From: an uncultured Candidatus Saccharibacteria bacterium
Lineage (GTDB): Bacteria > Patescibacteriota > Minisyncoccia > Phycocordibacterales > SW-6-46-9
NCBI GenBank assembly: GCA_964534365.1
Contig: CAZHOI010000001.1
Span: forward strand, 188,171-252,170
Direction of reading: 5' to 3'
Length of the DNA: 64,000 bases
Made by a program: the position numbers and the translations under genes. Of this stretch, positions 2,006-28,930 are shown one piece after another. Position 1 is the stretch's first letter. Every line of letters begins with the position of its first letter. The notes under the pieces are model-generated. The model was given only the letters and a program-made list of their open reading frames with translations, was not told where the DNA came from and did not search any database.

Positions 2006-2049
2006 AAAAGTCACTTATAATAAGATATAATTTCTTAAAGATACTTATT

Positions 2050-6247: not shown

Positions 6248-6307
6248 CAGTAAAAAGCGTGCTCGCGTTCACTTTTCTACATAAGTCAATTAGTATATAG
6301 CCATAAT

Positions 6308-7177: not shown

Positions 7178-7222
7178 ATGGTAAGGATGAGGTCGACAGT
7201 TCAATTCTGTCAGGCAGCTCCA
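7178..7222 (+). pseudogene. 3' half of the disrupted host tRNA-Thr(GGT), from the anticodon loop through CCA
   Basis: ATGGTAA-GGATG-AGGTC-GACAG-TTCAATT-CTGTC-AGGCAGC-T-CCA; GGATG pairs CATCC and AGGCAGC pairs GCTGCCT of the 854-891 half; the ORF 7120-7317 over this region is spurious. Confidence 0.7.
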
Positions 7223-7276
7223 CTAAATTACACCACAAATATTTAAACCCGTTGGGTGACTGTCACCCTTGTCTCA

Positions 7277-9514: not shown

Positions 9515-9634
9515 AGACTTATTGTAACAGCTTTAAATTAACATCTATTAGAATGTCAACATTTTATTACCGTGTCCAAACTATGGATTTTAATTCAGAA
9601 CATTTTATAATCTGATTGGACCAACCACAGACTC

Positions 9635-9943
9635 ATGTACTACCAAGGATCAGTAGAAGCTGTAATTGCAGCGTATCAAAAAGCCTTTCCACATGTCGAG
9701 CCCAAATTTATTGATCTAGACGAAATTGACCTAACCAAACCAGTCGATCCATCATATGTGCTATGGATGTGTCAGAAAATTAAACATGAAAAGCCAAATT
9801 CTTATGAAAGTGCTGTCAAAATGGGACGTTGGATTGGTTGGATCTTTCGAGAAGTAGAACTTCGCGGCTTATGGCCAAACAGTTACAGCCGAGATCTCTC
9901 AAGAGCTGACAAACAAGCAGGTCGAGATCTACCTCATCAATAA
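9635..9943 (+). CDS. Hypothetical protein
   Basis: 102-aa ORF followed by a hairpin terminator. Confidence 0.45.
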   Translation: MYYQGSVEAVIAAYQKAFPHVEPKFIDLDEIDLTKPVDPSYVLWMCQKIKHEKPNSYESAVKMGRWIGWIFREVELRGLWPNSYSRDLSRADKQAGRDLPHQ

Positions 9944-9955
9944 CCGTACTCCCTA

Positions 9956-9989
9956 GGCACGCTTTAATCAGCGTGCCGATTTCTTTATA
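9956..9989 (+). terminator. Putative rho-independent terminator
   Basis: GGCACGC-TTTAATCA-GCGTGCC followed by a T-rich tract. Confidence 0.45.
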
Positions 9990-9999
9990 ATCCTATTAT

Positions 10000-10536
10000 A
10001 TGAAAGCACTATTTATAAGGCATGGCGAAAGTGAATTTAATAAAAAAGGTTTCATGACTGGAATTACTGATGTAGGTTTAACCAAAAAAGGTTTTCAACA
10101 AGCAAAGCAGGTAGCAGAAAAACTACACGATAGTAATTTTGATCAAATTATTTGCTCGCCGTTATTACGAGCTCGACAAACCGCCAAACCTCTGGCAGAG
10201 ATAAGCCGCCTTAAACCGATCTTGTGGGAAGAGCTTTATGAAGTTAATTACGGTCAATGCCAAGGCGCACCAAAAGAATATGATCTCAGCAGTTTAGAAA
10301 TGATCGCGCAGAAATTGTGCCCCGGATCAGAAACTTTAGCGGAATTAGAATCGAGGGCCGGTATTGTTGTTGCAAAATTAAAAAGCTTAAAGTCCGATAA
10401 AGTTGTAATAGTTGGTCACCGCACATTTACCTCGATTATATTTGCGGTGCATAAAGGATTAGATCGATCTGAATTTGCTGAATTCAGAAAAGGATGGGAG
10501 TTTAAGAATGGGGAAATTAAGGTTTTAATAGTATAA
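10000..10536 (+). CDS. Histidine phosphatase family protein (phosphoglycerate mutase-like)
   Basis: N-terminal RHGES motif; LLRARQT. Confidence 0.8.
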   Translation: MKALFIRHGESEFNKKGFMTGITDVGLTKKGFQQAKQVAEKLHDSNFDQIICSPLLRARQTAKPLAEISRLKPILWEELYEVNYGQCQGAPKEYDLSSLEMIAQKLCPGSETLAELESRAGIVVAKLKSLKSDKVVIVGHRTFTSIIFAVHKGLDRSEFAEFRKGWEFKNGEIKVLIV

Positions 10537-10540
10537 AAAA

Positions 10541-11086
10541 CTACCGCACATCGTCACGGATTTTTTCGAACTCTTCATCCGTAATCAGAGTTTTTATATC
10601 TGTCATTCGATCTACAAATAATATCCCATCTAAATGATCTAATTCGTGCTGAAATACCCGCGCCCCAACCCCTGATAAACTTGCCTCGACCTGTTGACCA
10701 GATTCATTTATATAACTGACCTCGATTGTATTGGGACGCCTAACTTGACCCCAAAATCCTGGGGCCGACAAGCACCCTTCCCAATCGACCGATGTGTCGT
10801 CCGAGCGCCATCTCATTAACGGATTTAGGCAAATGACTGGTCCTGTAATTGGTCCCAGGGTCTTTTCCTGCCAGTCATTGCGATAGATGTCTGCTAAAAA
10901 TATACGCCAGGCAAGATTAATTTGCGGCGCAGCCAAGCCAATACCATGTTCAGGGATCGAGGATTTGAGGCTGGCAATTAACTCTTGTATCTCTGGGCTG
11001 GATATGTACTCAAGCGGTACAGCAGCTGATTTTTGGCGCAAAGTCGGATGTCCAAATTGGATAATTTTTCGCTGATGATTGGTCAT
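10541..11086 (-). CDS. def: Peptide deformylase
   Basis: Three signature motifs: GIGLAAPQ, EGCLS, QHELDH; start chosen at MTNHQ to avoid overlapping the upstream gene. Confidence 0.85.
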   Translation of the reverse strand: MTNHQRKIIQFGHPTLRQKSAAVPLEYISSPEIQELIASLKSSIPEHGIGLAAPQINLAWRIFLADIYRNDWQEKTLGPITGPVICLNPLMRWRSDDTSVDWEGCLSAPGFWGQVRRPNTIEVSYINESGQQVEASLSGVGARVFQHELDHLDGILFVDRMTDIKTLITDEEFEKIRDDVR

Positions 11087-11087
11087 A

Positions 11088-11615
11088 TTAGCTAGACTTG
11101 GAGGTAGTGGTTGAGGCAATGGTCGAAATAACGATTATGGCCCCAAACATGGTTAGAGCCATAGTAGGAATAGTGACCAGCCCAAATACATTCACCCACA
11201 ATGTATCGCAGCTAGCCGATTGACCAACGCTGCTACAAGTTAATCCCGAGGTTGGCAATCGTTGTTCGATTACGTGATATAGGGAAATTGCAAAACCAAC
11301 AATTGCCAAGGTTTTTGCATAAATTAATGATTTAGGATCTTTGATTGCAATTCCTAAATAAGCAATTAATACAATCGGATACATAAATATTCGCTGATAC
11401 CAGCACAACTGACATGGTTCATATCCAATAATTTCGGAATACCATAGCGATCCAATAGTGGCCGCTAATGAAACTGCCAGAATTAAATAAACTGGAATTA
11501 AATTATTCTCAGAAACTTTATTTTTATACCATCGATTCAAATCAGGAATTAAAGTAAAACCAATAATTGCTAGCCATACCGCAATGGCACCAATACCAAA
11601 AAACAGATCTGTCAT
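11088..11615 (-). CDS. Disulfide bond formation protein B family (BdbC/DsbB-like) membrane thiol oxidoreductase
   Basis: PCQLCWYQRIFMYP closely resembles the Bacillus BdbC PCELCWYQRILMYP motif; four TM segments; second Cys pair CSSVGQSASC. Confidence 0.75.
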   Translation of the reverse strand: MTDLFFGIGAIAVWLAIIGFTLIPDLNRWYKNKVSENNLIPVYLILAVSLAATIGSLWYSEIIGYEPCQLCWYQRIFMYPIVLIAYLGIAIKDPKSLIYAKTLAIVGFAISLYHVIEQRLPTSGLTCSSVGQSASCDTLWVNVFGLVTIPTMALTMFGAIIVISTIASTTTSKSS

Positions 11616-11660
11616 ATTGTTACTATAACTAATTTCGAAGGTTATTTAAATGGCTAAAAC

Positions 11661-11993
11661 CTAATATTCGTCGACGTCTTCGGGTTCGTAATCAATTGCA
11701 TCATCCTCGTCATCATCATCAAATGCCCCTAGGTCCAGGTCGTCTTCATCATCAATATCATCCTCGTCAGCGACAAAATCATCGGATAATTCTTCGTCTA
11801 ATTCCACATCTGCGTCATCAACTTCATCATCAAATGCGTCCTCTAGGTTATTGCTATCACTTTCACTAGTTGCAAATAATTTAGCAGCAAATAACATTGA
11901 CAAATGAATTTGATTGAACAATCTTAAGGCAGTAAAAAAACGATCGTAATTAGTTGTGGTTGAAATGGTATTGACCATAATATTTGACATTAT
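11661..11993 (-). CDS. Hypothetical protein with extreme acidic (D/E) C-terminal tail
   Basis: ORF only; low-complexity composition, may not be expressed. Confidence 0.35.
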   Translation of the reverse strand: MMSNIMVNTISTTTNYDRFFTALRLFNQIHLSMLFAAKLFATSESDSNNLEDAFDDEVDDADVELDEELSDDFVADEDDIDDEDDLDLGAFDDDDEDDAIDYEPEDVDEY

Positions 11994-12043
11994 ATGTTGA
12001 TTACGATTTGTAATATACACTGTTTTGACAAAGGCACAAGCAC

Positions 12044-12829
12044 TTATAATTGTATTAGTCCGGCAACAACTGCCAGAACTCCAAACCCGAATACAAAAAC
12101 ACTAAAATTGGCATCTTTGGCAATTCGCAGTAGCCAACCAATAGTTAAATATCCGACTATGGCAGCAGTAGCTAGAGCCACCACCCCACCGGGCGAGGTG
12201 ATAATTTGTAATCCCTCACCTTGCCACAGTAATAAGGCCGAGCCGATAATCATGATTGGCAGTCCGATTATAAAACTATTCTCAAGGCTAGCAGTTGTTG
12301 AAAACCCACGCCACAATGAAACCGCCGTAGTCGATCCTGATCGTGAGATGCCGGGAATAACTGCTAATCCCTGAGTAATTCCCAGCCATAGACCATCCAT
12401 TTTGCTGACATCGAATCTAGTCCTTATGTCCTGACCAGACCGCTTTAGCAACCAGGCAGTAAACAGCAAAGCGACACCCATAATTATAGTCAGGATTGAA
12501 CCGGCTGAATCACCGGCGGTTATTTGTTTTAACCCTAAATAAATGGGTCCACCTACTACTAGCGACATTGCCGTAGTCACAATTATAAACTGTCGATAAT
12601 TAGTTTTAGATCTGCTAGATTTCATCAGATTCAGTAGCTCATCTTTGAAATACCCGGCAATTGCCAAAGCTGTTCCCAGATGTAACAACAGTGCGGTGTC
12701 AATAATAGTTTGAGGCGATAAGCCCAGTAGTTGCACCCCAATAATCGCCACCATCGCCTCTGAAGAAACCGGCAGCCATTCGGCAATTCCTTGAATTAAA
12801 CCTAATAAAAAACCCTGCCAAACATTCAT
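12044..12829 (-). CDS. uppP: Undecaprenyl-diphosphatase (BacA/UppP)
   Basis: GLIQGIAEWLPVSSEAM and PGISRSGSTT motifs; polytopic membrane protein. Confidence 0.85.
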   Translation of the reverse strand: MNVWQGFLLGLIQGIAEWLPVSSEAMVAIIGVQLLGLSPQTIIDTALLLHLGTALAIAGYFKDELLNLMKSSRSKTNYRQFIIVTTAMSLVVGGPIYLGLKQITAGDSAGSILTIIMGVALLFTAWLLKRSGQDIRTRFDVSKMDGLWLGITQGLAVIPGISRSGSTTAVSLWRGFSTTASLENSFIIGLPIMIIGSALLLWQGEGLQIITSPGGVVALATAAIVGYLTIGWLLRIAKDANFSVFVFGFGVLAVVAGLIQL

Positions 12830-13735: not shown

Positions 13736-14308
13736 ATGGCTCGCTTCCCTAATCATACCGGCATGAATGAAAATGCCGAGGTAGTAGAGCAAATTTTGCA
13801 AACTCAGCTGGCGACGTGTTTTGACCTGTATTCGCAAATTAAACAAGCTCATTGGAATCTGAAGGGTCCAGGATTTATTGGCATTCATCAAATGTTTGAT
13901 AATTTTGCTGAAGAAATTATTAATTTAGTTGACACGATTGCCGAACGAATTGCGGCACTGGGGGGTTATCCCTTGGGTTATTTATCCGCTGCCTCGGCAA
14001 ATTCAGAATTAGACAATCCGGTTGATGACCTGGTTCAAGACCTGGATTGGGTTGCTTTTATTCTGGACCAGCACCATCAGTATTCGACCAAATTATATAA
14101 TGATATTAAATCAGTTGGTCCTCTGGATCCTGCCAGCGAAGACCTATTAATTGAGATTGTGCGATCAATTGATAAAAATATTTACTTTTTATCAGGGCAT
14201 TTAGAAGATGACACCTCAGCCGAGGCATATGAAACTGGGTCTGATGTTGACCAGAACAAAGATGAAGAGACCGAAGTAGTTGATGATGGCGAGGACGCAA
14301 CTATCTAG
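13736..14308 (+). CDS. dps: DNA starvation/stationary-phase protection protein Dps (ferritin-like) with acidic C-terminal tail
   Basis: QIKQAHWNLKGPGFIGIHQMFDNFAEE is the ferroxidase-site region. Confidence 0.85.
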   Translation: MARFPNHTGMNENAEVVEQILQTQLATCFDLYSQIKQAHWNLKGPGFIGIHQMFDNFAEEIINLVDTIAERIAALGGYPLGYLSAASANSELDNPVDDLVQDLDWVAFILDQHHQYSTKLYNDIKSVGPLDPASEDLLIEIVRSIDKNIYFLSGHLEDDTSAEAYETGSDVDQNKDEETEVVDDGEDATI

Positions 14309-14312
14309 TAAC

Positions 14313-14798
14313 TTATAACTGATTATCGTTAGTGAACAAGTTAAGGTATTGTCCATAACCTCTTTCAGCCATTTTATTCGTGGGAATAAACTCGAGGGCG
14401 GCTGAATTTAAACAATAGCGCTGGCCAGTTGGGCTAGCAGTTGATGATTCAGATTCAGTAGTGGGACCATCAGGAAATACGTGACCCAAATGTGAATCGG
14501 CCTGCGACGAGCGCACCTCAATTCTCGCTTGCCACAGACTATTATCCTCTACTTCGATAATATTTACCCCGTCAATTGGTTTAGTAAACGATGGCCAACC
14601 GGTTCCTGATTCATATTTATCAATTGATGAAAATAGTACCTCGCCAGACACAATGTCCACATAAATTCCCTCTTGTTTATTATTCCAATACTGATTAACA
14701 TAGGGCGGCTCAGTTCCGTTTTTTTGAGTAACAAAATATTGCATTTTGGTTAGCTCTTTTTTTAATTGTTCTTTGTCGGGTTTAGAATATTTTTTCAT
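14313..14798 (-). CDS. msrB: Peptide-methionine (R)-S-oxide reductase MsrB
   Basis: [17 protein letters not shown] and RYCLNSAAL motifs. Confidence 0.9.
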
Positions 14799-14821
14799 AC
14801 TTTATAGATTGAGATCCCCAA

Positions 14822-16000
14822 TTAACCTTCCGCTCCTACTTCTGAACTTAGATCGCTAACTGCTGCGCCATTTAAAAACAATTGTACTCGATCAACCGCT
14901 TCAAACTGTAAAGCTGTTTCTTCGATCTGAATCTGCGCACGGGGCTCATCGCAAACTCCGGCAATCCCTGACAATTTACCCAGCAAATAAATTTGGGCTT
15001 CGCCATCAATTATAGTAGCTCGATCGAATGAAAGCGTGTCATTAGTATTGGGAATAAAGTGATTCAATTCACCAAGTTTATTATTATCAATTGCAAACAA
15101 CTGCCTTATCGATTCATTTAATGGCTGGGTGGTTGGTAAAATATTTCGCTCGATCAGCTCGACATTGTCACACCCTCGATCAGGTTCAGAATCAGCTGGT
15201 GATAGTAAGGCCAATTTAACCTGGGCCACGGGTTCAAGTTTAGTCACAGTTGGCAGTTCGCGATATGGCTCGATCGATTGGATCAAGTTGATGGCTCGTT
15301 CTTTGTCTGGGCTTGGCAACAAATTGTCATAGGTAATTTTCATGGCAGTACTGTCATCAAGGTTAATAACTGTTATTAACGTAGAATCAGTATTGGCTTT
15401 TAAATAGTTAAACCCATCTCTTCCCAATATGGAAATACTATCAACTTCGCCCTCTGCGTCAGGTGTCAGATTTTGGGCGGTTGCTGCCTCTTCCAATAAA
15501 TTGATTTCTATTCGTAATGATTTATTAGATGATTGATCAGTTATTGTAACTCCATTCTCTGATTGCGTTACGTTAGTTTTAGGAGGTTGAAGGAATGAAA
15601 AACCATATCCGACTAGAAAAACTTCAGAATAGAAACGTTCCCACGAGTCAATATTTAAATTATTTGAAAATTGATTTCTCTTAGCCAAACAGGATTTAGA
15701 AATAGTATCGCCGCCAGATTTAACCACCGCCTCGCCGTCAATTACCCAGAATAAATCTTGGCCGTTATCGGACTCAAATCGCAAGCTATTATTGGTTGAA
15801 ACTTGCTTGAGATCCATCACGACCCCTCCTGGTACAGTTACCGAGGCTTGATTACCTGTAACCACGACCTCCACCTCGACACCGTCACCGCAATCGTATT
15901 TAGCAACAACTGGATCAGGTTTTGGCAATAGCGCCAGAACCGCCATTATTACCACGACTAAAATGCCAATTCCAATTGCTAACAATTTGTAATTTTTCAT
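14822..16000 (-). CDS. Secreted/lipoprotein-like protein with MliC-like N-domain and GerMN-like C-domain (tentative)
   Basis: N-terminal TM/signal; YDCGDG...C pattern resembles MliC; the C-terminus resembles germination/sporulation GerMN domains. Confidence 0.5.
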   Translation of the reverse strand: MKNYKLLAIGIGILVVVIMAVLALLPKPDPVVAKYDCGDGVEVEVVVTGNQASVTVPGGVVMDLKQVSTNNSLRFESDNGQDLFWVIDGEAVVKSGGDTISKSCLAKRNQFSNNLNIDSWERFYSEVFLVGYGFSFLQPPKTNVTQSENGVTITDQSSNKSLRIEINLLEEAATAQNLTPDAEGEVDSISILGRDGFNYLKANTDSTLITVINLDDSTAMKITYDNLLPSPDKERAINLIQSIEPYRELPTVTKLEPVAQVKLALLSPADSEPDRGCDNVELIERNILPTTQPLNESIRQLFAIDNNKLGELNHFIPNTNDTLSFDRATIIDGEAQIYLLGKLSGIAGVCDEPRAQIQIEETALQFEAVDRVQLFLNGAAVSDLSSEVGAEG

Positions 16001-16040
16001 GAGGTAAATACTAACTCAACTTGGTGATAGGTACCAGATT

Positions 16041-16502
16041 TTAGTCGATTGATCTTTTAGGAAGATATGTTGAAGCCATAATCAGAAATATCAGTGTTGT
16101 CGTTAGCGCTGACAGTAAACAGAATTGGCACCAATACTCAATCACAATTGCCTGCAAATAAATCAGATAAATACTGACCACCATTCCTATCGTGACTACA
16201 AACATGATCAGGTGGCGCAAGAAATTTAGTTGTTTATAGGCAAACCAAACCAATAATCCCAGCATTAATAGATAATAAATCAGGCCGTATGCAGCTAGGG
16301 GGATATTAAATAAACTGGCATAAGAGCTGGATAATACATAATTACAACCCCCGGTTAAAGAGCAGCTTACCGCAGTTGTAGAAATCCAATATTTGTAGGT
16401 TAAATAACCAGAATCTATTATCCCTATAATTGACAAAACAATTAGTAATCCTGTTTTATCCCCCCGTAACCATGACATTATCTGCTGATTATAGCAGTTC
16501 AA
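16041..16502 (-). CDS. Vitamin K epoxide reductase (VKOR) family membrane thiol oxidoreductase
   Basis: Loop Cys pair CSLTGGC plus CxxC (CQFCLLSAL) inside a TM helix; 4-5 TM segments. Confidence 0.7.
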   Translation of the reverse strand: MNCYNQQIMSWLRGDKTGLLIVLSIIGIIDSGYLTYKYWISTTAVSCSLTGGCNYVLSSSYASLFNIPLAAYGLIYYLLMLGLLVWFAYKQLNFLRHLIMFVVTIGMVVSIYLIYLQAIVIEYWCQFCLLSALTTTLIFLIMASTYLPKRSID

Positions 16503-18984: not shown

Positions 18985-19554
18985 CTAGGCTGGCAGTTCA
19001 ATATCAACCGATTCAACTAACAAATAAAACCTGGCAGTATTATCTAGTTCTAAATTATCACTTTCATAACTAGACAGGTCGCGCCTGGAATCATCCAAGG
19101 TTATTATTTCACCCGATAGCGACAGGGTTTGTCCAACGTTAATGTCAGTTTGTGATTCAGGTAGATCTAGTTCTTGTTCTAGTAAGGCCCGTAAATTAAT
19201 TGTCCCATCAGATACTACAAATCCGCGGTCACTATATAGGTCTACCACCTCGACATCTGATAAGTTGACACTAACCCCTTCGATATCTTCACTCGTTGCC
19301 AGACTAGTTAGCTGCGACAGACTGTAGACAGTATTGACCTCGTTGGCTCCGGTAGGATCCTCGCCATCGGCCAGCATAGAGGTTTCGGTTACAGTATCTA
19401 GATTAATATCCCGGCTAATATCTAAATCTTGATCAGCTAGGTCGTACCAACCTAGTAGTAGTCCGATTAGCAGTAATAACAGTAGCAATCCCAGTAACCA
19501 CCATGGCCAAGTTTTCTTTTGACCCACTAATCTTGTTTCGTTTTTATTTTCCAT
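18985..19554 (-). CDS. Hypothetical membrane-anchored acidic protein
   Basis: N-terminal TM WPWWLLGLLLLLLLIGLLLGW. Confidence 0.5.
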   Translation of the reverse strand: MENKNETRLVGQKKTWPWWLLGLLLLLLLIGLLLGWYDLADQDLDISRDINLDTVTETSMLADGEDPTGANEVNTVYSLSQLTSLATSEDIEGVSVNLSDVEVVDLYSDRGFVVSDGTINLRALLEQELDLPESQTDINVGQTLSLSGEIITLDDSRRDLSSYESDNLELDNTARFYLLVESVDIELPA

Positions 19555-21219: not shown

Positions 21220-21293
21220 CTCGAGGTAGCTCAGTTGGTTAGAGCGGGCGTCTCATACGCGCCAGGTCGTGAGTTCGAATCTCACCCTCGAGA
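21220..21293 (+). tRNA. tRNA-Met (anticodon CAT), elongator-type
   Basis: Acceptor CTCGAGG/CCTCGAG (1-72 paired), D-arm GCTC-AGTTGGTTA-GAGC, anticodon stem GGCGT/GCGCC, loop CTCATAC, T-arm GTGAG-TTCGAAT-CTCAC. Confidence 0.85.
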
Positions 21294-21330
21294 CTATTTA
21301 CGCTCAGAAATTTTTGAAAATTTATTCGCT

Positions 21331-21428: not shown

Positions 21429-21989
21429 TTAATTCAGATTGAGGCTCGTAACGTAAATTACTTCTGTTACTCCAACCAATGTTGTCCGTTCTTCACTAGT
21501 GATTTGAATTGTGCTGATTGACGCTATGTAGCCATCAAAAATAATAGTGTCACCGGCATCAATTTCAATTATATCTTCAGCCACTCCCAAATCTAGCACA
21601 TCTCCCAAATAAGCTATTTGACCTTGACTAGAACCTTCTAGGAAAATTTGAAAAAACCGATCGCTATAGACCGCTCCTACATATGCTGATTGATTTTCAA
21701 TATCATTTCTTCGATCAAAGTTTGTAGATCTGGCATTAATACCATCTATCACACTATCAGTAGTGGCTACCGTAACCCCGTCATCAATTAACACCTCGGG
21801 CGAATCATCAATGATAACCACGTCAGTGTCATCATTGGCCAGGCTCCATACCAATGCAAATAATAAAACTATTGCTAGTATGGTTATAAAAATCCAGGCG
21901 TATTTAGGATTTTCATCATGTAGAGCCGCGCGATTAACATGATGGTCTGTAACATCAACATTGCTTTCTGGGTTATTAAGATTTTTCAT
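21429..21989 (-). CDS. Hypothetical single-pass membrane protein
   Basis: TM helix WIFITILAIVLLFALVWSLA. Confidence 0.5.
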   Translation of the reverse strand: MKNLNNPESNVDVTDHHVNRAALHDENPKYAWIFITILAIVLLFALVWSLANDDTDVVIIDDSPEVLIDDGVTVATTDSVIDGINARSTNFDRRNDIENQSAYVGAVYSDRFFQIFLEGSSQGQIAYLGDVLDLGVAEDIIEIDAGDTIIFDGYIASISTIQITSEERTTLVGVTEVIYVTSLNLN

Positions 21990-22032: not shown

Positions 22033-22716
22033 CTATAGCTTGACCACCTCACCCTCGCCGATTACCCAAACTGAATCTGGCTGAAATTTATTAAATCGCA
22101 ATGAACCGTTAAAAGAACCAAAGGCCGGTAAAATTAAGCCCTTGCCCATTTGCACAAAGGCCGGTAATTTGCCCTCGCCCGGTAGCTTGTACCCTGGGTG
22201 TTCATGTCCCGAAATAAAACAATCAGTTTTGGCATCATTGCGATCGTGCACAAATTCGGCCCCCAATATTTCTAAACATGGCATAATTTCCAAATTCATT
22301 TTGTTTAATTCCGTTCGGGCCCAGCGGTCATGATTACCTTCTACCAAAATAAAGTTTTGTGAATTATTTTCAAAAAAATCTGCCAGAAGTTCAAAATCTG
22401 AGGTCGCACGCGAGTGGATTAAGTCACCCACTATTACCACTGTTTTAACATCATGCTGATCCAATAACATCTGTAGTCGCGCGAGATCTTGCTGGCCAAT
22501 TTCTGGTGCATATTGTCCCAAACGGCGCCAATGACTGTCTTTACCAAAATGAACATCAGCAAGAATAAGTGTCTTTTCACCAGGATTATAGACGACACGA
22601 TCAGGCAGCAATACCAATTCCAAATTACCAATTTCGAGGTGAGGGTTCAGATGATGAGGTGACATATACTGAATTAGATTATAAGATTTTAAAAGCCAAA
22701 CCGCAGTTTTTACCAC
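22033..22716 (-). CDS. pdeM: Ligase-associated DNA damage response endonuclease PdeM (metallophosphoesterase)
   Basis: Calcineurin-like motifs LADVHFG, GDLIH, GNHD; last gene of the exonuclease-ligase-helicase operon. Confidence 0.75.
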   Translation of the reverse strand: MVKTAVWLLKSYNLIQYMSPHHLNPHLEIGNLELVLLPDRVVYNPGEKTLILADVHFGKDSHWRRLGQYAPEIGQQDLARLQMLLDQHDVKTVVIVGDLIHSRATSDFELLADFFENNSQNFILVEGNHDRWARTELNKMNLEIMPCLEILGAEFVHDRNDAKTDCFISGHEHPGYKLPGEGKLPAFVQMGKGLILPAFGSFNGSLRFNKFQPDSVWVIGEGEVVKL

Positions 22717-22720
22717 TGAC

Positions 22721-25129
22721 CTAATCAGTTTTTGTTTCTAGTTGTAGTTGGTATTTTTTAATTCGCTCTTTAAAAGACTCGCTGGTTAATCGAGCCTTTA
22801 ATCGCTCGGCGACAACTGGAAAAGCAAATGGTGTTAGGCGATTGGGATTAGTAATGATAGGATCCAGTCTACCTAACCGATCAAGTTCATTTTTTACTTG
22901 ATCAATTTGTAAATCGTATGTTAGCACTTCAATCCTCGCTTGCTGGATTAGAGGATGGTTTGGTTCGAACTGCACCAGTGCTTCATAAAGGGTGTCGCTG
23001 GAGCCCGCTAAATGCGAATATCGTTTGGCTTGCCAAGGAAAACCGGGAAATAATAGCCCCCCAATCCTGGCAATGGTAGCAAAACGACGCTTGGCCAGTT
23101 CCGAGAAATTTTGTGAATCTACCAAATCGGTCATCACATTCTGAATTGTTAATAATTCATTCAGTTCAGCGGGTAAGTTGACGAGTTCAGCTGACTTGGA
23201 TAGTAATTCGAAACCATAATCATTTGCAGTAAAAGAAATTGTATCAGTGCGATTTTTTAACCAACGATGGGCAATCAAAGTCGCAATTTGTTCGTTGATT
23301 ACCTGTCCGGCAAACGGATAGATAACTATATGATGACCTTCGCGAGTTTTAAAATGCTCGATTAAAAGCTGGTTTTGGTTTGGCACCCTAGATCGCTGAT
23401 TTTGAATATTTATTAAATAACCGGCCTTATCATTCTGATTAGATACCACCCTACGTAATTCATCTGCAAGATGATCAGCAATTGGTAGCCGCGAGCCAGT
23501 CCAACGGGGTATAAACCCATCACCGCTACGCGTGCGCTTAACCGTAATATCAGTATTATGCATTCTCTGCACTTGGTAGAATTTACCTCCTAATTGAAAT
23601 TTATCCCCCGGTTTTAATTTGGCCGCAAAAGCATCATCAATTGTTCCAATTCGTCGCCGGCGGTTAATAATTTGGTAAGGTTGACCACCCTCGATAGTGC
23701 CGATGTTGAATCGATGACGCATAGCATGTCGTTTCGAAGCAATCTCAAGTTTTGTACCTGATTGAACCACATGCTGAAACTGCTCGTAACGACCCAGGGT
23801 TTTACCACCTTGGGTTACAATTGCTAAAACTTGCTGCCAAAAACTTTTGTCTAGATCATGGTAATAATAGCAGTTCTGCAACTCTTTCTTTAGAACTGAT
23901 TTATCCACTGCACTGCCGCAGACTCGGGTCGAAACATATTGCGCGGCGACGTCTAGCGCATTCTCTGGCAGCTGTGCTACTGGATCCAGCCTACCTTTCT
24001 GCAGTAAATTTTTTATTGCCTGAATCTCGAGTATTTCAAGGGTAAAGGTTGGCACCACAAACACTTCTGGGGCAACACCAGGTCGATGGTTCGAACGTCC
24101 AGCCCGCTGACGAAGTCGAGTAATTGATTTAGGCGACGACACTTGAACCACTAACTCTACTGACTGAAAATCCAATCCCAAATCCAAACTAGCGGTTGCT
24201 ATTACCACTCGAGCCGTACCGTTTTTAAGCTTTTCTTCGACTGATCGGCGATGATCGATTTCTAGTGAGCCATGATGTATTAAAACATCTGCTGGAGTTA
24301 ATATTTGCTTCTTATCTAATTTAACTTTTTCTTGGAGCGCTTCAAACCAGAATTCTGCCCCCGCTCGGGTATTAACAAAAATTATACTGGATGTAGCCTG
24401 GCTGACTAATTTATAAACCCGAGGCACCATTTTTAACCCAATGTGCCCCCGCCACGAATACGCCGCAGGGGTGTCTGGTTGCAATAGCGTAATTTTTTCC
24501 TTGATCCGGGATTTTTTTGGTGGCTGAATTAATTTGTAATGAGTATCGGTGTTAAATAAAGCTTTTGCTGCTAGATCTGGGTCTGAAATTGTAGCTGATA
24601 TGCCACAAATATCTTTTAAATTAAAACTTGTTGTCAAGGCACTGATACCTAGCGAGGTCTGTACCCCACGTTTGTTAGCTAACAGACTATGCCATTCATC
24701 AACCACTACTGATTCAATCTGATTCAATAGTTTATAGGCGGTTTTCTGTGATAGTAATAAATGTAGCGATTCCGGTGTCGTTACTAATACCCGCGGCGGT
24801 TTTTGGAACATCAATTTTTTGTCCGAGGCACTGGTATCGCCGGTCCGATACATTACCTTGTCAGCTAGGTCGAGTGTTCCAATGATATTTTCCAACGATT
24901 TAGCAGTGTCAAATGCCAGCGCCTTGAGTGGTGTAATCCACAATAAAGTCGTATTGGTTTTGATTGCCTGTTCTAATAATGGCAAAAACGCCGCCAAAGT
25001 CTTGCCCTCGCCGGTAGGGGCAGCAATCAAATTATAGCGATTTTTTCCTAAAGCCTGGTAAGACCGACGCTGCAAAGCAGTTGGTTCCCAGCGTTTTCTA
25101 TCGAAAAAATTTTTAAAAAAATCCGGCAT
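22721..25129 (-). CDS. Ligase-associated DNA damage response DEXH-box helicase (Lhr-core-like)
   Basis: Walker A APTGEGKT, DEWH box, helicase C motifs (QRAGRS); ~800 aa with a large C-terminal extension. Confidence 0.85.
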   Translation of the reverse strand: MPDFFKNFFDRKRWEPTALQRRSYQALGKNRYNLIAAPTGEGKTLAAFLPLLEQAIKTNTTLLWITPLKALAFDTAKSLENIIGTLDLADKVMYRTGDTSASDKKLMFQKPPRVLVTTPESLHLLLSQKTAYKLLNQIESVVVDEWHSLLANKRGVQTSLGISALTTSFNLKDICGISATISDPDLAAKALFNTDTHYKLIQPPKKSRIKEKITLLQPDTPAAYSWRGHIGLKMVPRVYKLVSQATSSIIFVNTRAGAEFWFEALQEKVKLDKKQILTPADVLIHHGSLEIDHRRSVEEKLKNGTARVVIATASLDLGLDFQSVELVVQVSSPKSITRLRQRAGRSNHRPGVAPEVFVVPTFTLEILEIQAIKNLLQKGRLDPVAQLPENALDVAAQYVSTRVCGSAVDKSVLKKELQNCYYYHDLDKSFWQQVLAIVTQGGKTLGRYEQFQHVVQSGTKLEIASKRHAMRHRFNIGTIEGGQPYQIINRRRRIGTIDDAFAAKLKPGDKFQLGGKFYQVQRMHNTDITVKRTRSGDGFIPRWTGSRLPIADHLADELRRVVSNQNDKAGYLINIQNQRSRVPNQNQLLIEHFKTREGHHIVIYPFAGQVINEQIATLIAHRWLKNRTDTISFTANDYGFELLSKSAELVNLPAELNELLTIQNVMTDLVDSQNFSELAKRRFATIARIGGLLFPGFPWQAKRYSHLAGSSDTLYEALVQFEPNHPLIQQARIEVLTYDLQIDQVKNELDRLGRLDPIITNPNRLTPFAFPVVAERLKARLTSESFKERIKKYQLQLETKTD

Positions 25130-25131
25130 AA

Positions 25132-26775
25132 TTATTTTGATCGCAAAAGGCTATTTGCTGCTTCTAGCGTATCTGCCTCGGACACTGGTTTGTCCTGTCG
25201 CCAGCGCAAAATTCGCGGAAACCGAACCGCCAACCCAGATTTGTGCCTGGCTGAGGGGGCAATACCCTCGAAGGCAATTTCAAAAACTTGACCAACTTTT
25301 ACCGTTCGCACTGGACCGAAACGCTCGAAAGTATTTTTCTTGATCCAGTTATCGACTTTGGCAATTTCTTTATCAGTCAAGCCAGAATACGCCTTTGCCA
25401 GCGGTACTAATTGGGCTTGACCTGGTTGAGGAAAGCCATCAATCGTATCCGGAATCGGTCCCGTCGACGTGTCCCATACCCCTAAAGTGTAGTCAGTATA
25501 GAGGGTGGCACGACGACCACTGCCACGCTGGGCATACATCAACACCATATCAAGTGTATAAGGGTCGACTTTCCACTTCCACCACTTGCCTTTTTTGCGT
25601 CCCACAAAATATTCTGACCCGCGATGTTTAATCATAACTCCTTCAGCATCCATGTCGCGGGCGGTATCTTTGATCTTCGATAATTGATCCCAAGAATTAA
25701 AAGATATTTCCTGGGAAAGGATGAGATTATTATGATTGACAATAGAGACAGCTTCTTCCAATAATTTTCTGCGCTTAGTCAGACTTTGATTGCGAACGTC
25801 ATTGCTATCATATTCAAAAATATCATAGGCAATAATGCCCACTGGATTCTTCTTCATCATTGCGCCTGAAACATTTTTGCGGCCCAATCGATTTTGCAAT
25901 GAGTTAAACGGCTGGATTTTACCGTTCTCGATGACGATTAATTCACCATCAATGGCGGTTCCGTCAGGAAGACCCGTGGCAATTTCGGCAAGATCAGGAA
26001 ATTGATCGGTAATCAAATCCTCACCCCGGGACCAAATATGAACCTCGCCAGATCGTTTAATAATCTGAGATCTAATACCATCCCATTTCCACTCGGCTTG
26101 CCATTCATCCGGATGACCCAATTCAGCAAAATCACGATCCAGTTGATATGCCAATGCAAACGGATAAGGTCTGGCGGTATTAGCCTGATCGCTGAATAAA
26201 ATTTCTTCCAGTGATTCAAATTCAGCAGGCGTCCATTTACCACCTAATCTAAACTGGACCTCATCTTCGGGTAATTCGTACGTTTGAGCAATTGACCGAT
26301 ACACTAATTTTTTTGACGCCCCCACTCGAAAAGCTCCGGTTATTAGTTTGTTAAATACAAAACGCTCCAGCCTAGGTAGTGATGCCCATACTTTTAATAC
26401 ATAGGCCTTCTTTTCTACAACTGATTTGTTTTTTAGATCAATTAATTCAACCGCCCATTTGCCAAGTCGTCTGTTGCGGTATTTTTTATTGGGCTCCGGT
26501 AGTATCAGCGTAATCGTTTCGGCCAGATCTGCAATCTGATTATAGCTCTCGGCAAATAACCAGTCAGGCACCGCAGCTAACTCGGCCGACCATTCTTTTA
26601 ACAGAGTACGATTTACTGGTTGCGGTAGGCGCTCGCCTGATAAAAACCAAGCCGCCCATAATTTATCATGATCCGAGACCTTTTTATTTTGGAAATAATT
26701 GTTTAAAGCCACTACTTTTTTAAGCGTTTTTGTAGTTCGATCCAGATTCTCGAATAATTTTGCCAAGTCTCTCAT
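25132..26775 (-). CDS. ATP-dependent DNA ligase (ligase-associated DNA-damage-response type)
   Basis: Adenylation motif I KWDGIR; OB-fold C-terminus; 3 bp from the helicase gene. Confidence 0.85.
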   Translation of the reverse strand: MRDLAKLFENLDRTTKTLKKVVALNNYFQNKKVSDHDKLWAAWFLSGERLPQPVNRTLLKEWSAELAAVPDWLFAESYNQIADLAETITLILPEPNKKYRNRRLGKWAVELIDLKNKSVVEKKAYVLKVWASLPRLERFVFNKLITGAFRVGASKKLVYRSIAQTYELPEDEVQFRLGGKWTPAEFESLEEILFSDQANTARPYPFALAYQLDRDFAELGHPDEWQAEWKWDGIRSQIIKRSGEVHIWSRGEDLITDQFPDLAEIATGLPDGTAIDGELIVIENGKIQPFNSLQNRLGRKNVSGAMMKKNPVGIIAYDIFEYDSNDVRNQSLTKRRKLLEEAVSIVNHNNLILSQEISFNSWDQLSKIKDTARDMDAEGVMIKHRGSEYFVGRKKGKWWKWKVDPYTLDMVLMYAQRGSGRRATLYTDYTLGVWDTSTGPIPDTIDGFPQPGQAQLVPLAKAYSGLTDKEIAKVDNWIKKNTFERFGPVRTVKVGQVFEIAFEGIAPSARHKSGLAVRFPRILRWRQDKPVSEADTLEAANSLLRSK

Positions 26776-26790
26776 AAACTATAATTCAAG

Positions 26791-27810
26791 TTAATCTTCG
26801 TCATCGCTACGGTGAAAATGCCCCCTAAATTCAGATGTTTCTAATCCCCACTCCTCGGTTAGAAATTTCGCCATCTGAGATGTATATCCATGATTGGTAA
26901 TAACCCGCTTGGCGCCAGTCTCTTTAACTGCTCGCAGAATTCCATCCCAATCAGCATGGTCAGACATCACAAACCCCCGATCAGCTCCTTTGCGGCGGCG
27001 GGTGCCCCTGGCCTGCATCCAACCTGACGCAAATCCCACTGAATAAGGGGCAAATTTTTTTACCCAAGAAGCACCAAAAGATGACGGCACGGCAATGATC
27101 ATCGCGTCTCGATATTCTGATTTGTCCACCTCACGAGAGGCTTTAGGAACATCTGGTAAATCAAATCCGGCAGCGCGTATTCTTTTATTAGACTCATAAA
27201 CAGCACCGTGACAAAACATCTTAACCCCGCGCTGGGCCAAACCGTAAATTAATCGCTGTGCCTTGCCTAACGCATAAGCACCCAATAGCGAACAAATGCC
27301 TTCTTTGACATTTTGTTGATACCAGTTGGCAATTTGATCCATCACATCGTCATTGGGTTGCCAACGATAGACCGGCAGTCCAAAAGTGGTTTCGGTAACA
27401 AATACATCGCAATCAACCGGTTCGAACGGATGGGACAAGCCGTCATCCTGGTATTTCCAGTCACCAGTATCAACCCACACCTGACCTTGATATTCAATTC
27501 TAATTTGCGCCGAACCAGGAACATGACCGGCCGGATGAAATGAAAATGAAACGCCATTAAAACCAAACTCTTGATAATATGGGACTTCGTGAAATTTTTG
27601 AGAGCTATCCTTTCTGGCAACCCGATACTCCAGGATGGGACGCGATTCTGGCGTCATCCAATATTGCTTCATCCCCCACCTGGCGTGATCGGCATGAGCG
27701 TGCGTAATTACCGCGCGATCAACCGGAGATTTAGGATCCAACCATACATCTGCTGGTGGGCAATATAATCCTTGCTTGGTTTGAATGATTAAGTCTGATT
27801 TGATAGCCAT
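26791..27810 (-). CDS. Ligase-associated DNA damage response exonuclease (metallo-beta-lactamase/beta-CASP fold)
   Basis: HxHxDH motif ITHAHADHA; first gene of the four-gene operon. Confidence 0.8.
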   Translation of the reverse strand: MAIKSDLIIQTKQGLYCPPADVWLDPKSPVDRAVITHAHADHARWGMKQYWMTPESRPILEYRVARKDSSQKFHEVPYYQEFGFNGVSFSFHPAGHVPGSAQIRIEYQGQVWVDTGDWKYQDDGLSHPFEPVDCDVFVTETTFGLPVYRWQPNDDVMDQIANWYQQNVKEGICSLLGAYALGKAQRLIYGLAQRGVKMFCHGAVYESNKRIRAAGFDLPDVPKASREVDKSEYRDAMIIAVPSSFGASWVKKFAPYSVGFASGWMQARGTRRRKGADRGFVMSDHADWDGILRAVKETGAKRVITNHGYTSQMAKFLTEEWGLETSEFRGHFHRSDDED

Positions 27811-28733
27811 TCCCTTAACTGATTAATTGATAAAGATTCTACTAGTGTTTGATTACAAACTCTTTCTAACTCCACCAGATCAGAAGCGGTGACATCAACT
27901 CTGCTTGCTTGATCATCGTGTTGCAAATAATACATTATCGCTCCTTCGTCGGACACATGCCCCATTCCTAGCGCGTGACCAAATTCATGAACCAGCAAGG
28001 CCAATAAATCAGATTCTGTTTCGTATTGATAAATTTCAATCCCGTATTGATTGTAAATCCCCTGTTTGAAAGTATCTCCTCGCCTGGCAAATTGCTGGTT
28101 AAAAATGGCGACCTCGTCATTAAATTCCTCGACCTGATTGTTAGTTTCTGACGCTAATCGATTTAACCTCTTGGCCAAAGAATTCAAGTTTTTACGATCT
28201 GATTCTAATTGCGCGAAATCATTGGCTAATTTATCTGATCTGGCCTCTAGATCACTGACCGATCCGCCTTCTCCGGCATTATAATTTTCTACCGCTTGAT
28301 TATAGTTAGATTGGTTCTGTTGGTAGCGATCACGCTTGGCAACATAAGATTTCTGCGCTTGGCGGTAATTTTGCTCTAGCTCTTCAACTGAATCAAACTT
28401 GTTTTCTAGAGTTTCGCGACTAGTATCTAGGTTTGATTCTGACGAAAGGCGCTGGATTGTTTGCTGCTGTCGATCATCAAAAATAAATTCAATCATGAAC
28501 GGTGATTCTGGATCATAATCGATTATGGTTTTACCAATTTCTTTATTCCAGACCTCGGCCGCCTGTTGCGCTACTGATATTGCAGTTTCACGATTTAAGT
28601 TAAATTCATCCGGAATTGATCCAAGGCTATATTCTATTCCAGTTTGGCACCCCGGCACCACGGTTTGATAGATAAAAAAACCACTGAATGCAATTATCAA
28701 CAATAAAACTATATTACTAATAAACTTGAACAC
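27789..28733 (-). CDS. Matrixin-like zinc metalloprotease (metzincin) with N-terminal membrane anchor and coiled-coil segment
   Basis: HEFGHALGMGH fits the HExxHxxGxxH motif; N-terminal TM. Confidence 0.7.
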   Translation of the reverse strand: MFKFISNIVLLLIIAFSGFFIYQTVVPGCQTGIEYSLGSIPDEFNLNRETAISVAQQAAEVWNKEIGKTIIDYDPESPFMIEFIFDDRQQQTIQRLSSESNLDTSRETLENKFDSVEELEQNYRQAQKSYVAKRDRYQQNQSNYNQAVENYNAGEGGSVSDLEARSDKLANDFAQLESDRKNLNSLAKRLNRLASETNNQVEEFNDEVAIFNQQFARRGDTFKQGIYNQYGIEIYQYETESDLLALLVHEFGHALGMGHVSDEGAIMYYLQHDDQASRVDVTASDLVELERVCNQTLVESLSINQLREWLSNQT

Positions 28734-28859
28734 TATCCTTTAGTATAGCCCCTAACCCCAACAACATAAACTACGATTTGTGGTTTATTGTATCTACTAG
28801 CCTTTTTTGTTACATTAATCCTACACTGCGGGCCGCTATAGCGAGCCTCGCGAAAATAT

Positions 28860-28930
28860 CGCGGGATGGAGAAGAGGTATCTCGGGAGGCTCATAACCTC
28901 CAGACGTAGGTTCGATTCCTGCTCCCGCAA
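28860..28930 (+). tRNA. Initiator tRNA-fMet (anticodon CAT)
   Basis: C1xA72 mismatch (CGCGGGA vs TCCCGCA), T8 G9, D-arm GAGA-AGAGGTA-TCTC, anticodon stem GGAGG/CCTCC, loop CTCATAA, T-arm GTAGG-TTCGATT-CCTGC; the overlapping ORF 28733-28930 is spurious. Confidence 0.8.

Follow-up and report, generated by a model that had tools for sequence, protein, structure and literature searches.

The closest described counterpart of the locus reported here is a four-gene cluster of P. putida, in which the genes follow the order Exo-Lig-Lhr-Core-MPE (Ghosh et al. 2020, PMC7826289; also Ejaz & Shuman 2018). Biochemical activities have been reported for Lhr-Core, for MPE and for the ligase LigB (PMC7826289, PMC7470946, PMC8301817, PMC10140301). 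An SNM1B/Apollo-like role has been predicted for the Exo of the cluster, and no member of its family, TIGR04122, has been biochemically characterised in any organism (PMC7470946). The Lhr helicases linked to MPE form the bLhr group, not bLhr-HTH (PMC8301817). Among about 160 loci that we fetched, Exo-Lig-Lhr-Core-MPE was the commonest arrangement and the order of most of the complete ones; the two-gene modules Exo-Lig and Lhr-MPE also occur independently, both in the fetched loci and in the literature (PMC7826289).

Can the same operon be recognized in a CPR genome? We analysed a window of 64,000 nucleotides (40.4% GC), by which we mean the whole stretch of DNA under consideration. Our preferred reading, to which we assign a probability of roughly 85%, is that the region is an intact chromosomal Exo-LigB-Lhr-Core-MPE repair operon of an uncultured, small-celled Patescibacteria (CPR) bacterium and that it was vertically inherited within its sampled CPR clade. 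The ORF listing of the window contains four co-directional minus-strand ORFs spanning positions 22033-27810, with spacers of 15 nt (Exo/Lig), 2 nt (Lig/helicase) and 4 nt (helicase/MPE), which is the tight spacing that the original prediction had claimed. The block consists of the following features.

28860-28930, plus strand: initiator-type tRNA(CAT), found with ARAGORN and Rfam; divergent from the operon and the upstream boundary of the block.
27789-28733, minus strand: matrixin-like protein (Peptidase_M10; PF00413, E 5e-9) with a lipoprotein-like N-terminus.
26791-27810, minus strand: Exo, a ligase-associated exonuclease of the MBL/beta-CASP nuclease type, 339 aa, assigned by TIGR04122 and motifs.
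25132-26775, minus strand: ATP-dependent DNA ligase of the LigB type, 547 aa, assigned by NF006701, TIGR04120, Pfam and motifs.
22721-25129, minus strand: Lhr-Core (bLhr) DExH-box superfamily-2 helicase, 802 aa, assigned by TIGR04121, Pfam and motifs.
22033-22716, minus strand: MPE/PdeM, a binuclear metallophosphoesterase nuclease, 227 aa from a GTG start, assigned by TIGR04123 and the structures 6NVO/6NVP.
21429-21989, minus strand: membrane-anchored protein without a family match, 186 aa, the downstream neighbour.
21220-21294, plus strand: second tRNA(CAT), elongator Met or Ile2, whose acceptor stem is paired throughout; it closes the block on the downstream side.

The four cassette ORFs matched four dedicated NCBIfam models with HMM E-values of 3e-47 to 1e-235, so that the identity of the cassette lies far beyond chance. 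Exo scored 412.6 bits against TIGR04122 (NCBIfam cutoff 325), in agreement with the predicted MBL-fold exonuclease, whose HAHADH motif lies at residues 37-42. Further motifs are AGH (94), DTGD (114), VTETT (138), SDHAD (283) and NHG (304), and H96, E140, H285 and H307 were all found. The PDB relatives of Exo are the beta-CASP nucleases CPSF73/Ysh1/TTHA0252.

The ligase exceeded the cutoffs of both NF006701 (658.8 bits, cutoff 543, residues 1-546 aligned) and TIGR04120 (592.5 bits, cutoff 400, residues 3-543 aligned). Its DNA-binding, nucleotidyltransferase and OB domains matched Pfam DNA_ligase_A_N, _M and _C, and motifs I, III, IIIa, IV, V and VI are all preserved. The KWDGIR motif on which the prediction of an ATP-dependent ligase was based occupies residues 230-235, with K230 as the adenylated lysine; IDGEL, EGVMIK, WWKWK and RFPRILRWRQDK are also present. 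The PDB relatives are archaeal/Lig1-type ligases, and the protein is 45 to 53% identical to its LigB counterparts in Bacteroidota, Planctomycetota and Chloroflexota. We rejected a LigD/NHEJ identity: LigD models reached 75 to 116 bits against cutoffs of 228 to 989, and an NCBIfam/Pfam search found no Ku, PrimPol or phosphoesterase domain in the ligase or in the neighbouring genes.

The 802-aa DEXH helicase of the original prediction holds, with DEWH at residues 144-147 and a full-length match to TIGR04121 (residues 5-798 of 802 onto model positions 3-803 of 804; E 1e-235). Its score of 783.9 bits, double what the next family reaches, lies below the curated cutoff of 850, a shortfall that would fit the fast evolution of this protein described below. 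Pfam DEAD, Helicase_C, WH_Lhr and DEAD_assoc domains were matched, and motifs I, Ia, Ib, II, III, IV, V and VI are intact (APTGEGKT, DEWH, SAT, TASLDLGLD and QRAGRSNH among their sequences). Among solved structures, M. smegmatis Lhr (5V9X; E 2e-49) is the nearest. A search of 1.84 billion representatives gave 39% identity for the best relative beyond the helicase's own 50% cluster, and no non-CPR sequence exceeded 39%. An ordinary long Lhr of ~1500 aa was rejected, since the protein has 802 aa, is limited to the RecA1-RecA2-winged helix-domain 4 layout and carries no C-terminal extension. Only 2 nt separate the gene from the ligase stop before it, and 4 nt from the MPE start after it. The original prediction had named, as examples, two identities that would refute it, a LigD-type ligase and an Lhr without ligase association, and neither gene fits them.

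The metallophosphoesterase named PdeM in the original prediction scored 160.7 bits against TIGR04123 (cutoff 150) and matched the structures of the P. putida nuclease MPE (6NVO/6NVP) with an E-value of 5e-23. Its true start is probably the ATG at 22665, giving 210 aa, compared with 209 aa in the relative. Membership was judged on the model score, on the binuclear metal ligands and on the equivalents of H113 and H81, two residues essential for nuclease activity. P. putida residues D33, H35, K38, D78, H81, R83, N112 and H113 are all conserved in the window MPE, in which D54/H56/D98/H101/N128/H129 align to D33/H35/D78/H81/N112/H113. In addition, the motif IV and V histidines of the P. putida protein have H157, H171 and H173 as their counterparts. 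Counted along the PDB chain, the conserved histidines are H142, H156 and H158; the paper prints His124 and His146 for two ligands, so the two numberings disagree.

Both predicted neighbours, a matrixin protease and an initiator tRNA, were recovered. The matrixin ORF has HEFGHALGMGH and a Met-turn, its hydrophobic N-terminus ends in G-C, and 22 nt of it overlap the start of Exo. It is a conserved upstream neighbour outside the canonical cassette and is possibly co-transcribed. Homologs occupy the same position in CPR loci L083, L086 and L169. The upstream tRNA(CAT) shows a C1xA72 acceptor mismatch and G30-C40/G31-C39 pairs; such a mismatch is typical of initiator tRNA in bacteria. In L083 and L086, too, this tRNA adjoins the gene for the matrixin. 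None of the non-CPR loci that we fetched (P. putida not among them) had either the matrixin or the initiator tRNA next to the cassette. Downstream, the 186-aa protein had no match in Pfam, NCBIfam or PADLOC and has a homolog (45% identity) immediately after MPE in L083 and L085. An ortholog of the second tRNA(CAT) lies at the equivalent place in L083. No promoter or terminator of the operon was assignable above chance level.

We then asked whether the cassette belongs to the genome in which it is found. MetRS matches named to taxon were all Patescibacteria, Paceibacterota, Parcubacteria or Kaiserbacteria, with one labelled "bacterium," and from these relatives we judge the host to be a Patescibacteria (CPR) bacterium. 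The small genome assumed in the original prediction thereby gains indirect support, from these relatives and from the 808-kb contig of one relative. The window also encodes RecA, FtsK, SSB, S6, S18 and EF-P. The original prediction had proposed comparing GC and codon usage with flanking genes; this comparison placed the cassette inside the native range of the window's other genes (GC z = 0.4 to 1.7, GC3 z = 0.3 to 1.3, RSCU distances likewise). Neither an integrase nor flanking direct repeats above chance were detected within 20.9-29.4 kb. The locus and its neighbours are common to three or four related CPR contigs, and in a relative with housekeeping genes only 67 to 80% identical, the block lies between these same tRNAs and neighbours. 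In this relative, Exo (83%) and Lig (78%) can be compared with the syntenic RmuC (80%), P-ATPase (67%) and DUF389 (68%) genes; judged by these identities, Exo/Lig divergence brackets that of syntenic housekeeping genes. In its composition, its lack of integrase and repeats, and its shared locus and neighbours, the cassette is native-looking. The arrangement varies within CPR: inserted genes separate Exo-Lig from Lhr-MPE in L083 and L169, and L086 has LigA after the ligase instead. With the gene set broken up or continuing differently in three of four CPR relatives, an intact operon is not a universal feature.

The original prediction had suggested that horizontal acquisition is possible, and this was not demonstrated: we found no compositional signal and no mobility signature, and the locus is conserved in CPR relatives. 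One form of this idea, suggested by the lists of best matches, is a transfer from Bacteroidota. Past three CPR relatives, ligase identity falls to about 50% and the named matches are nearly all Bacteroidota; named helicase matches are likewise mostly Bacteroidota, and the distribution is patchy, the cassette being apparently confined to a narrow CPR clade (5.8 to 15 billion proteins searched). However, mean ligase identity is 50% between CPR and Bacteroidota and also 50% between CPR and Planctomycetota/Chloroflexota, and the surplus of Bacteroidota matches may mirror database abundance only. In neighbor-joining trees, which with their long branches are weak evidence for or against any origin, the CPR sequences form one long isolated branch (100% support), roughly equidistant from Bacteroidota and other phyla and not nested in Bacteroidota. 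In the helicase and concatenated trees, a split with 100% support divides all sampled Bacteroidota from CPR, Planctomycetota, Chloroflexota and a Firmicutes-labelled MAG. Together with the absence of a compositional anomaly, these data make a Bacteroidota donor unlikely.

Are both halves of the cassette equally maintained? Between two CPR genomes, Lhr is 55% and MPE 44% identical, versus 78% for Lig and 83% for Exo. The Lhr/Lig identity ratio of this pair is 0.71, compared with 0.92 to 1.12 in 217 non-CPR pairs that are phylogenetically non-independent, and its MPE/Lig ratio lies at the bottom of the non-CPR range. By this measure, Lhr-Core appears to evolve about 1.4-fold faster relative to ligase than elsewhere sampled, and the low Lhr and MPE identities could reflect relaxed constraint on that half. 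Could the Lhr-MPE half then be decaying or repurposed in CPR, with only the Exo-Lig pair functionally maintained? The outlying ratios, the insertions between the halves in L083 and L169, the LigA gene after the ligase in L086, and the existence of stand-alone modules elsewhere point in this direction. Yet the helicases and MPEs of both CPR genomes are not truncated and have lost no catalytic motif. Helicase divergence is even across all four domains and both CPR lineages are equidistant from outgroups, which fits sustained fast evolution under selection and not pseudogenisation; the non-independence of the comparison pairs also tempers the outlying ratio. We therefore regard decay as decidedly unlikely.

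Another reading, which we consider quite improbable, is that within the narrow CPR clade the cassette is a lineage-specific unit whose helicase, and perhaps MPE, is adapted to a CPR-specific task and not to classic damage repair, for example to the processing of DNA taken up from a host cell or the environment. If so, the tRNA-fMet/metzincin/Exo/Lig block would have been co-inherited despite differing surroundings, and the two halves would be separable. In the same vein, the ATP-dependent ligase might have assumed more of the ligase work in a minimal genome.

The two tRNA(CAT) genes that bracket the block, and mobile elements elsewhere in the window (integrases around 1-7 kb and a transposase of the IS200 type at 47.1-47.7 kb), raise the question of a genomic island or mobile element recently integrated at a tRNA gene. 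This is very improbable: the two tRNAs are different molecules and no duplication of one, so they are not a duplicated attachment site, and the clean 20.9-29.4 kb interval, the native GC and codon usage, and the shared flanks in the relative described above all argue against it. It is more improbable still that the locus is an anti-phage defence system built on an Lhr-like helicase (Shango, BREX-BrxHI or Dpd type). The helicase does match PADLOC SngC (227 bits), BrxHI (206) and DpdJ (195), and MPE weakly matches an anti-phage phosphoesterase model; however, these helicase scores are 3 to 4 times lower than the 784 bits of TIGR04121, in PADLOC the match of MPE is negligible (E 5e-4) and Exo and ligase have none, and the adjacent genes include no SngA/B, BREX or Dpd partner. 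Finally, although an accessory repair cassette is unexpected in a lineage noted for its minimal genomes, a chimera or contaminant joining a larger-genome fragment to a CPR contig is virtually negligible, as the identical locus recurs in independent JGI, Logan and NCBI assemblies (identical ligase on 6 contigs, up to 305 kb), its flanks are common to related CPR contigs of other projects, identity to any non-CPR sequence is not above about 50%, and composition is native.

Under the preferred reading of a vertically inherited repair operon, the cassette would have been passed on since at least the common ancestor of the four sampled CPR relatives, within a conserved block ordered tRNA-fMet, matrixin-like lipoprotein, Exo, Lig, (Lhr, MPE), 186-aa protein, tRNA(CAT). 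Strong constraint would act on Exo and Lig, and Lhr-Core, probably with MPE, would evolve unusually fast with its catalytic residues kept. By analogy with activities seen in vitro elsewhere, Lhr-Core would load on a 3' single-strand tail and unwind DNA:DNA or RNA:DNA 3'-to-5' with ATP, and MPE, a Mn2+-dependent endonuclease, would cut the single strand thus exposed, a flap, a bulge or, at a nick, the opposite strand. The SNM1/Apollo-like beta-CASP Exo may resect from the incision beyond the lesion, and the gap may be filled by a polymerase encoded elsewhere. LigB-type ligases close nicks with ATP and without accessory factors in vitro, and the window ligase would seal the last one.

How does the locus compare with known systems? 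With SNM1/Apollo and CPSF73 beta-CASP nucleases, Exo shares MBL motifs 1 to 4 and beta-CASP motifs A to C, but it is far shorter (339 aa) and aligns with solved beta-CASP structures in the central region only (E about 1e-10). LigD/Ku NHEJ is likewise a bacterial system with an accessory ATP-dependent ligase; however, LigD and LigC have no N-terminal DNA-binding domain, which the window ligase possesses (PMC7470946). The LigB class agrees with it in the DB-NT-OB layout, in the six nucleotidyltransferase motifs and in genomic linkage to an Lhr helicase, MPE and a putative exonuclease (PMC7470946), while the CPR ligase stands apart from other LigB proteins on an isolated long branch with locus L171 as sister. 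M. smegmatis and E. coli Lhr (bLhr-HTH, about 1500 aa) have the Lhr-Core fold and DExH motifs in common with the window helicase, which lacks their C-terminal half containing HTH_42; a bLhr-type helicase beside MPE agrees with the published grouping (PMC8301817). The P. putida cluster is identical in its four families, order, orientation and tight spacing (the original prediction had matched the gene order to the known Lhr-ligase cassette of Proteobacteria and Actinobacteria), and its helicase has the same Lhr-Core architecture (RecA1-RecA2-WH-domain 4 only). The window differs in its low sequence identity, in its CPR and not proteobacterial host, in the matrixin gene overlapping the Exo start and the initiator tRNA upstream, and in a helicase that is unusually fast-evolving within its clade. 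The cluster type is thus one already described, unusual here only in its CPR host and its fast-evolving helicase.

The original prediction read this locus as a complete ligase-associated DNA-damage-response operon adjoining a matrixin protease gene and the initiator tRNA. The ORF listing revealed the four co-directional genes at the coordinates it had named, and both neighbors proved to be real:

26791-27810, minus strand: Exo, an MBL/beta-CASP exonuclease, 339 aa
25132-26775, minus strand: Lig, an ATP-dependent ligase of the LigB type, 547 aa
22721-25129, minus strand: Lhr, an Lhr-Core helicase, 802 aa
22033-22716, minus strand: PdeM/MPE, 227 aa from a GTG start
27789-28733: matrixin (Peptidase_M10) ORF, overlapping the start of Exo by 22 nt
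28860-28930: tRNA(CAT) with a C1xA72 mismatch

The spacers within the cassette are 15, 2, and 4 nt long. For PdeM, an ATG at 22665 (210 aa) is a likelier start than the GTG, because the family model and the homolog from a relative in the CPR (Patescibacteria), itself 209 aa long, both begin to align at about residues 23 to 28. The C1xA72 mismatch is a mark of bacterial initiator tRNAs, and two of the three canonical anticodon-stem G-C pairs are present as well. A permissive Rfam search of 20.9-29.4 kb returned no RNAs besides two tRNAs, and promoter-like sites (28 versus 21 ± 4 expected) and terminator-like sites (9 versus 7 ± 3 expected) were at chance level. The initiator tRNA and the matrixin gene diverge from a shared intergenic region of 126 nt. 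In it, 16 nt upstream of the tRNA, is a perfect 10-nt palindrome, CGCTATAGCG (28834-28843); it showed no obvious conservation in L083 or L086, two contigs from CPR relatives. Directly after MPE is the gene for a 186-aa protein (21429-21989, minus strand), which occupies the same position in L083 with 45% identity. This protein and a 189-aa protein (18985-19554, minus strand) are both family-less and are built alike, with a transmembrane helix at the N terminus and an acidic domain after it.

Each of the four proteins matched its own dedicated NCBIfam "ligase-associated DNA damage response" model. The main interpretation of the original prediction is correct.

Family matches of the cassette proteins and nearest solved structures.
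Exo: TIGR04122, 412.6 bits (cutoff 325); beta-CASP nucleases (Ysh1/CPSF73), E ~1e-10
Ligase: NF006701, 658.8 bits (cutoff 543), and TIGR04120, 592.5 bits (cutoff 400); archaeal and Lig1-type three-domain ligases (3GDE), E 3e-40
Helicase: TIGR04121, 783.9 bits (cutoff 850); M. smegmatis Lhr 5V9X, E 2e-49
PdeM/MPE: TIGR04123, 160.7 bits (cutoff 150); P. putida nuclease MPE 6NVO/6NVP, E 5e-23

The helicase aligned with TIGR04121 end to end (E 1e-235) yet scored slightly below the curated cutoff. The Pfam architecture of the ligase is DNA_ligase_A_N/M/C, and that of the helicase (DEAD, Helicase_C, WH_Lhr, DEAD_assoc) is the Lhr-Core layout, lacking a C-terminal extension. All catalytic motifs that could be checked were intact, and the motifs HAHADH, KWDGIR, and DEWH quoted earlier were all found in the proteins. 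In MPE, the equivalents of D33, H35, D78, N112, the general acid H113, and H81 are conserved; H113 and H81 are essential for nuclease activity (PMC7826289). The metal ligands as printed in that paper include His124 and His146, whereas counting on the PDB chain places the motif IV/V histidines at H142, H156, and H158, and the equivalents of all three are conserved in the window. Judged by its sequence, the cassette is a complete copy of a known, widespread repair cluster, and it is apparently functional.

The window lies within a JGI metagenome contig of 187.6 kb, and NCBI and Logan contigs, the longest 305 kb, carry the same proteins. The closest relatives of its MetRS are 65 to 73% identical; at 53 to 55%, the taxon-named matches all belong to the Patescibacteria group, Paceibacterota, Parcubacteria, Pacebacteria, or Kaiserbacteria, and one further match is labeled "bacterium" only. 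Ordinary chromosomal genes (RecA, FtsK, SSB, S6, S18, EF-P, MetRS, TatD, RmuC, and a P-type ATPase) occur together with many family-less ORFs and pilin-like genes, and the ligase of a close relative sits on an 808-kb contig. On these grounds the host is a CPR bacterium, plausibly with a small genome.

Elsewhere in the window, a low-GC stretch (0.31 to 0.36) at ~970-7000 adjoins a tRNA-Thr (1004-1077), holds two phage-integrase-family genes and a Peptidase_M78/DUF4411 pair, and is probably an integrated mobile element. A full-length match to LOOT RNA (Rfam RF03000; 64.6 bits versus a gathering score of 46.4) lies at 4213-4326 on the minus strand, with a 187-aa ORF on one side and a low-GC segment on the other; a literature search on this motif brought up nothing but an author's surname. 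An IS200/IS605-type Y1 transposase gene (PF01797) is located at 47111-47749 on the minus strand.

Is the cassette a long-term resident of this lineage or an acquisition? The original prediction had raised horizontal acquisition and proposed a comparison of GC content and codon usage, which revealed no foreign signal. The GC content of the cassette genes is 0.417 to 0.469 versus 0.401 ± 0.039 in the other 53 ORFs of the window (z = 0.4 to 1.7), their GC3 gives z values of 0.3 to 1.3, and in RSCU they differ from the remainder of the window by distances of 0.30 to 0.39, low and native-like values among genes of comparable length. Within 20.9-29.4 kb, we found no integrase genes and no direct repeats above chance, and the flanking tRNA(CAT) genes are two different tRNAs rather than duplicates. 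Acquisition as a recent island is made very unlikely by this native composition and by the lack of repeats, integrase, or duplicated tRNAs, and an assembly chimera by the presence of the locus in independent assemblies and on related contigs.

The arrangement around the cassette was compared in the CPR relatives:

L083/L085 (ligase 78% identical): DUF389, P-ATPase, RmuC, further genes, tRNA-fMet, M10, Exo, a 172-aa opposite-strand gene, Lig, pilin-like, CNNM, pilin-like, Lhr, MPE, a 187-aa protein, tRNA(CAT)
L169/L170 (79%; L170 is GCA_964343405.1): M10, Exo, a 71-aa gene, Lig, an opposite-strand gene
L086 (61%): tRNA-fMet, M10, Exo, Lig, and directly thereafter NAD-dependent LigA; upstream context otherwise different

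In L083, two prepilin-type (N_methyl) genes and a CNNM/CBS transporter gene lie between Lig and Lhr, and the insertions, including the 172-aa gene between Exo and Lig (L083 9431-13923; contig L172, 106-1741), separate an Exo-Lig half of the cassette from an Lhr-MPE half. In L086, the most distant CPR relative, LigA overlaps the ATP-dependent ligase gene and takes the place of Lhr (5334-7728), and the contig ends within LigA. Among the copies seen, the window's is the only uninterrupted one in the clade. Between the window and L083, syntenic housekeeping genes are 67 to 80% identical, and Exo (83%) and Lig (78%) are near these values, so that the cassette has diverged in step with the chromosome. 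Taken together, composition, mobility, synteny, and divergence argue that the cassette is a long-term resident, present since at least the ancestor of the four sampled lineages.

The narrow distribution of the cassette makes it plausible that an ancestor acquired it horizontally, as the original prediction had suggested, but the bootstrapped trees point to no donor. Ligases from outside the CPR relatives are only ~50% identical, and the named matches are overwhelmingly Bacteroidota; helicase matches are likewise mostly Bacteroidota, at identities of ≤38%. A scan of GTDB genomes with the ligase and one of metagenomes with a CPR ligase alignment gave, among the matches listed, only relatives at 45 to 50% and no new CPR relatives. 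In neighbor-joining (NJ) trees with 200 bootstrap replicates, the CPR clade was monophyletic in 100% of replicates, and nesting of its sequences inside Bacteroidota was not seen. The CPR ligase is equidistant from Bacteroidota (50%) and Planctomycetota/Chloroflexota (50%), and the helicase and concatenated trees place Bacteroidota beyond a 100%-supported split from CPR. In an exhaustive HMMER search of 1.84 billion cluster representatives, full-length helicases outside the 50% cluster to which the window's helicase belongs reached at most 39% identity. The best match outside that cluster is on L171 (GCA_964446595.1), a 41%-GC MAG contig carrying the whole cassette (5393-12554) as Exo-Lig-Lhr-(two opposite-strand genes)-MPE beside genes for ribosomal proteins S20, L21, and L27, Pth, a ROK kinase, and two DsbB genes. 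L171 grouped with the CPR clade with NJ support of 0.94 (ligase), 0.71 (Exo), 0.97 (helicase), and 1.0 (concatenated), a sister grouping that may reflect long-branch attraction in NJ.

The second half of the cassette has diverged further than the first. Between the window and L083, identity is 78% for Lig and 83% for Exo, and 55% for Lhr (22721-25129 versus 13971-16361) and 44% for MPE. The Lhr/Lig identity ratio of this CPR pair is 0.71 versus 0.92 to 1.12 in 217 phylogenetically non-independent non-CPR locus pairs with ligase identities of 0.68 to 0.88; the MPE/Lig ratio of 0.57 is at the bottom of the 0.57 to 0.93 range. Neither CPR helicase is closer than the other to the outgroups (0.34 and 0.35, versus 0.53 among outgroups), their divergence is spread evenly over RecA1, RecA2, WH, and domain 4, and the motifs are intact in both. 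This pattern suggests rapid evolution kept up over time and not decay, and such divergence explains the sub-threshold TIGR04121 score.

In all CPR relatives the matrixin gene directly precedes Exo, and no M10 homolog was found beside the cassette in ~160 non-CPR loci. The block of initiator tRNA, M10, Exo, and Lig is kept in all CPR relatives, even in L086 with its different context further upstream (observed at window 27789-28930, L083 7343-9434, L086 3232-5324, L169 1-1619). M10 overlaps the start of Exo by 22 to 28 nt in three of these loci, those of the window, L083, and L169. The matrixin-like protein combines HEFGHALGxxH and a Met-turn with a coiled-coil insert, and its hydrophobic N terminus ends in a conserved G-C. 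As a probable extracytoplasmic lipoprotein, it is regarded here as a conserved neighbor, possibly cotranscribed with the cassette; we do not count it among the repair components. A role as a SprT/Wss1-like protease for DNA-protein crosslinks was rejected, given only Peptidase_M10 matches and the conserved lipoprotein-like signal.

Two other systems are dismissed: LigD/NHEJ, as Ku, PrimPol, and a phosphoesterase module are absent and LigD models score far below cutoff, and anti-phage defense, as PADLOC matches the helicase only (≤227 bits) and partner genes are missing. A cisplatin phenotype is implied for the cassette families by their NCBIfam names only; cisplatin phenotypes are a subject of the RB-TnSeq preprint (10.1101/072470), and since its main text does not mention the ligase or helicase, we do not claim one. 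Literature searches that combined CPR with Lhr or with ATP-dependent ligase yielded no relevant papers.

The gene order is that of the known Lhr-ligase cassette, as originally predicted: it is identical to that of the Pseudomonas putida cluster, since reviewed as the LigB operon (PMC7470946; PMC10140301). Exo-Lig-Lhr-MPE was also the commonest complete arrangement in our survey of ~160 fetched loci, and MPE adjoins bLhr in 276 of 319 genomes (PMC8301817). In the known system, LigB seals nicks autonomously, MPE is a Mn-dependent single-stranded DNA endonuclease that also cuts tails, bulges, and sites opposite nicks, and Exo is predicted to be SNM1B/Apollo-like (PMC7826289, PMC7470946, PMC10140301). 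The cluster is textbook-level in the DNA repair field, and our analysis opens no new question and leaves the understanding of the system unchanged. It indicates that some ultra-small, repair-poor bacteria retain a self-contained helicase, nuclease, and ligase module, and so divergent a natural Lhr-Core/MPE variant (≤39% identical to anything outside the lineage) could help define the truly essential residues. Its CPR host, sequence isolation, and fast-evolving helicase make this cassette a somewhat unusual member of the known system, not a new kind of system.
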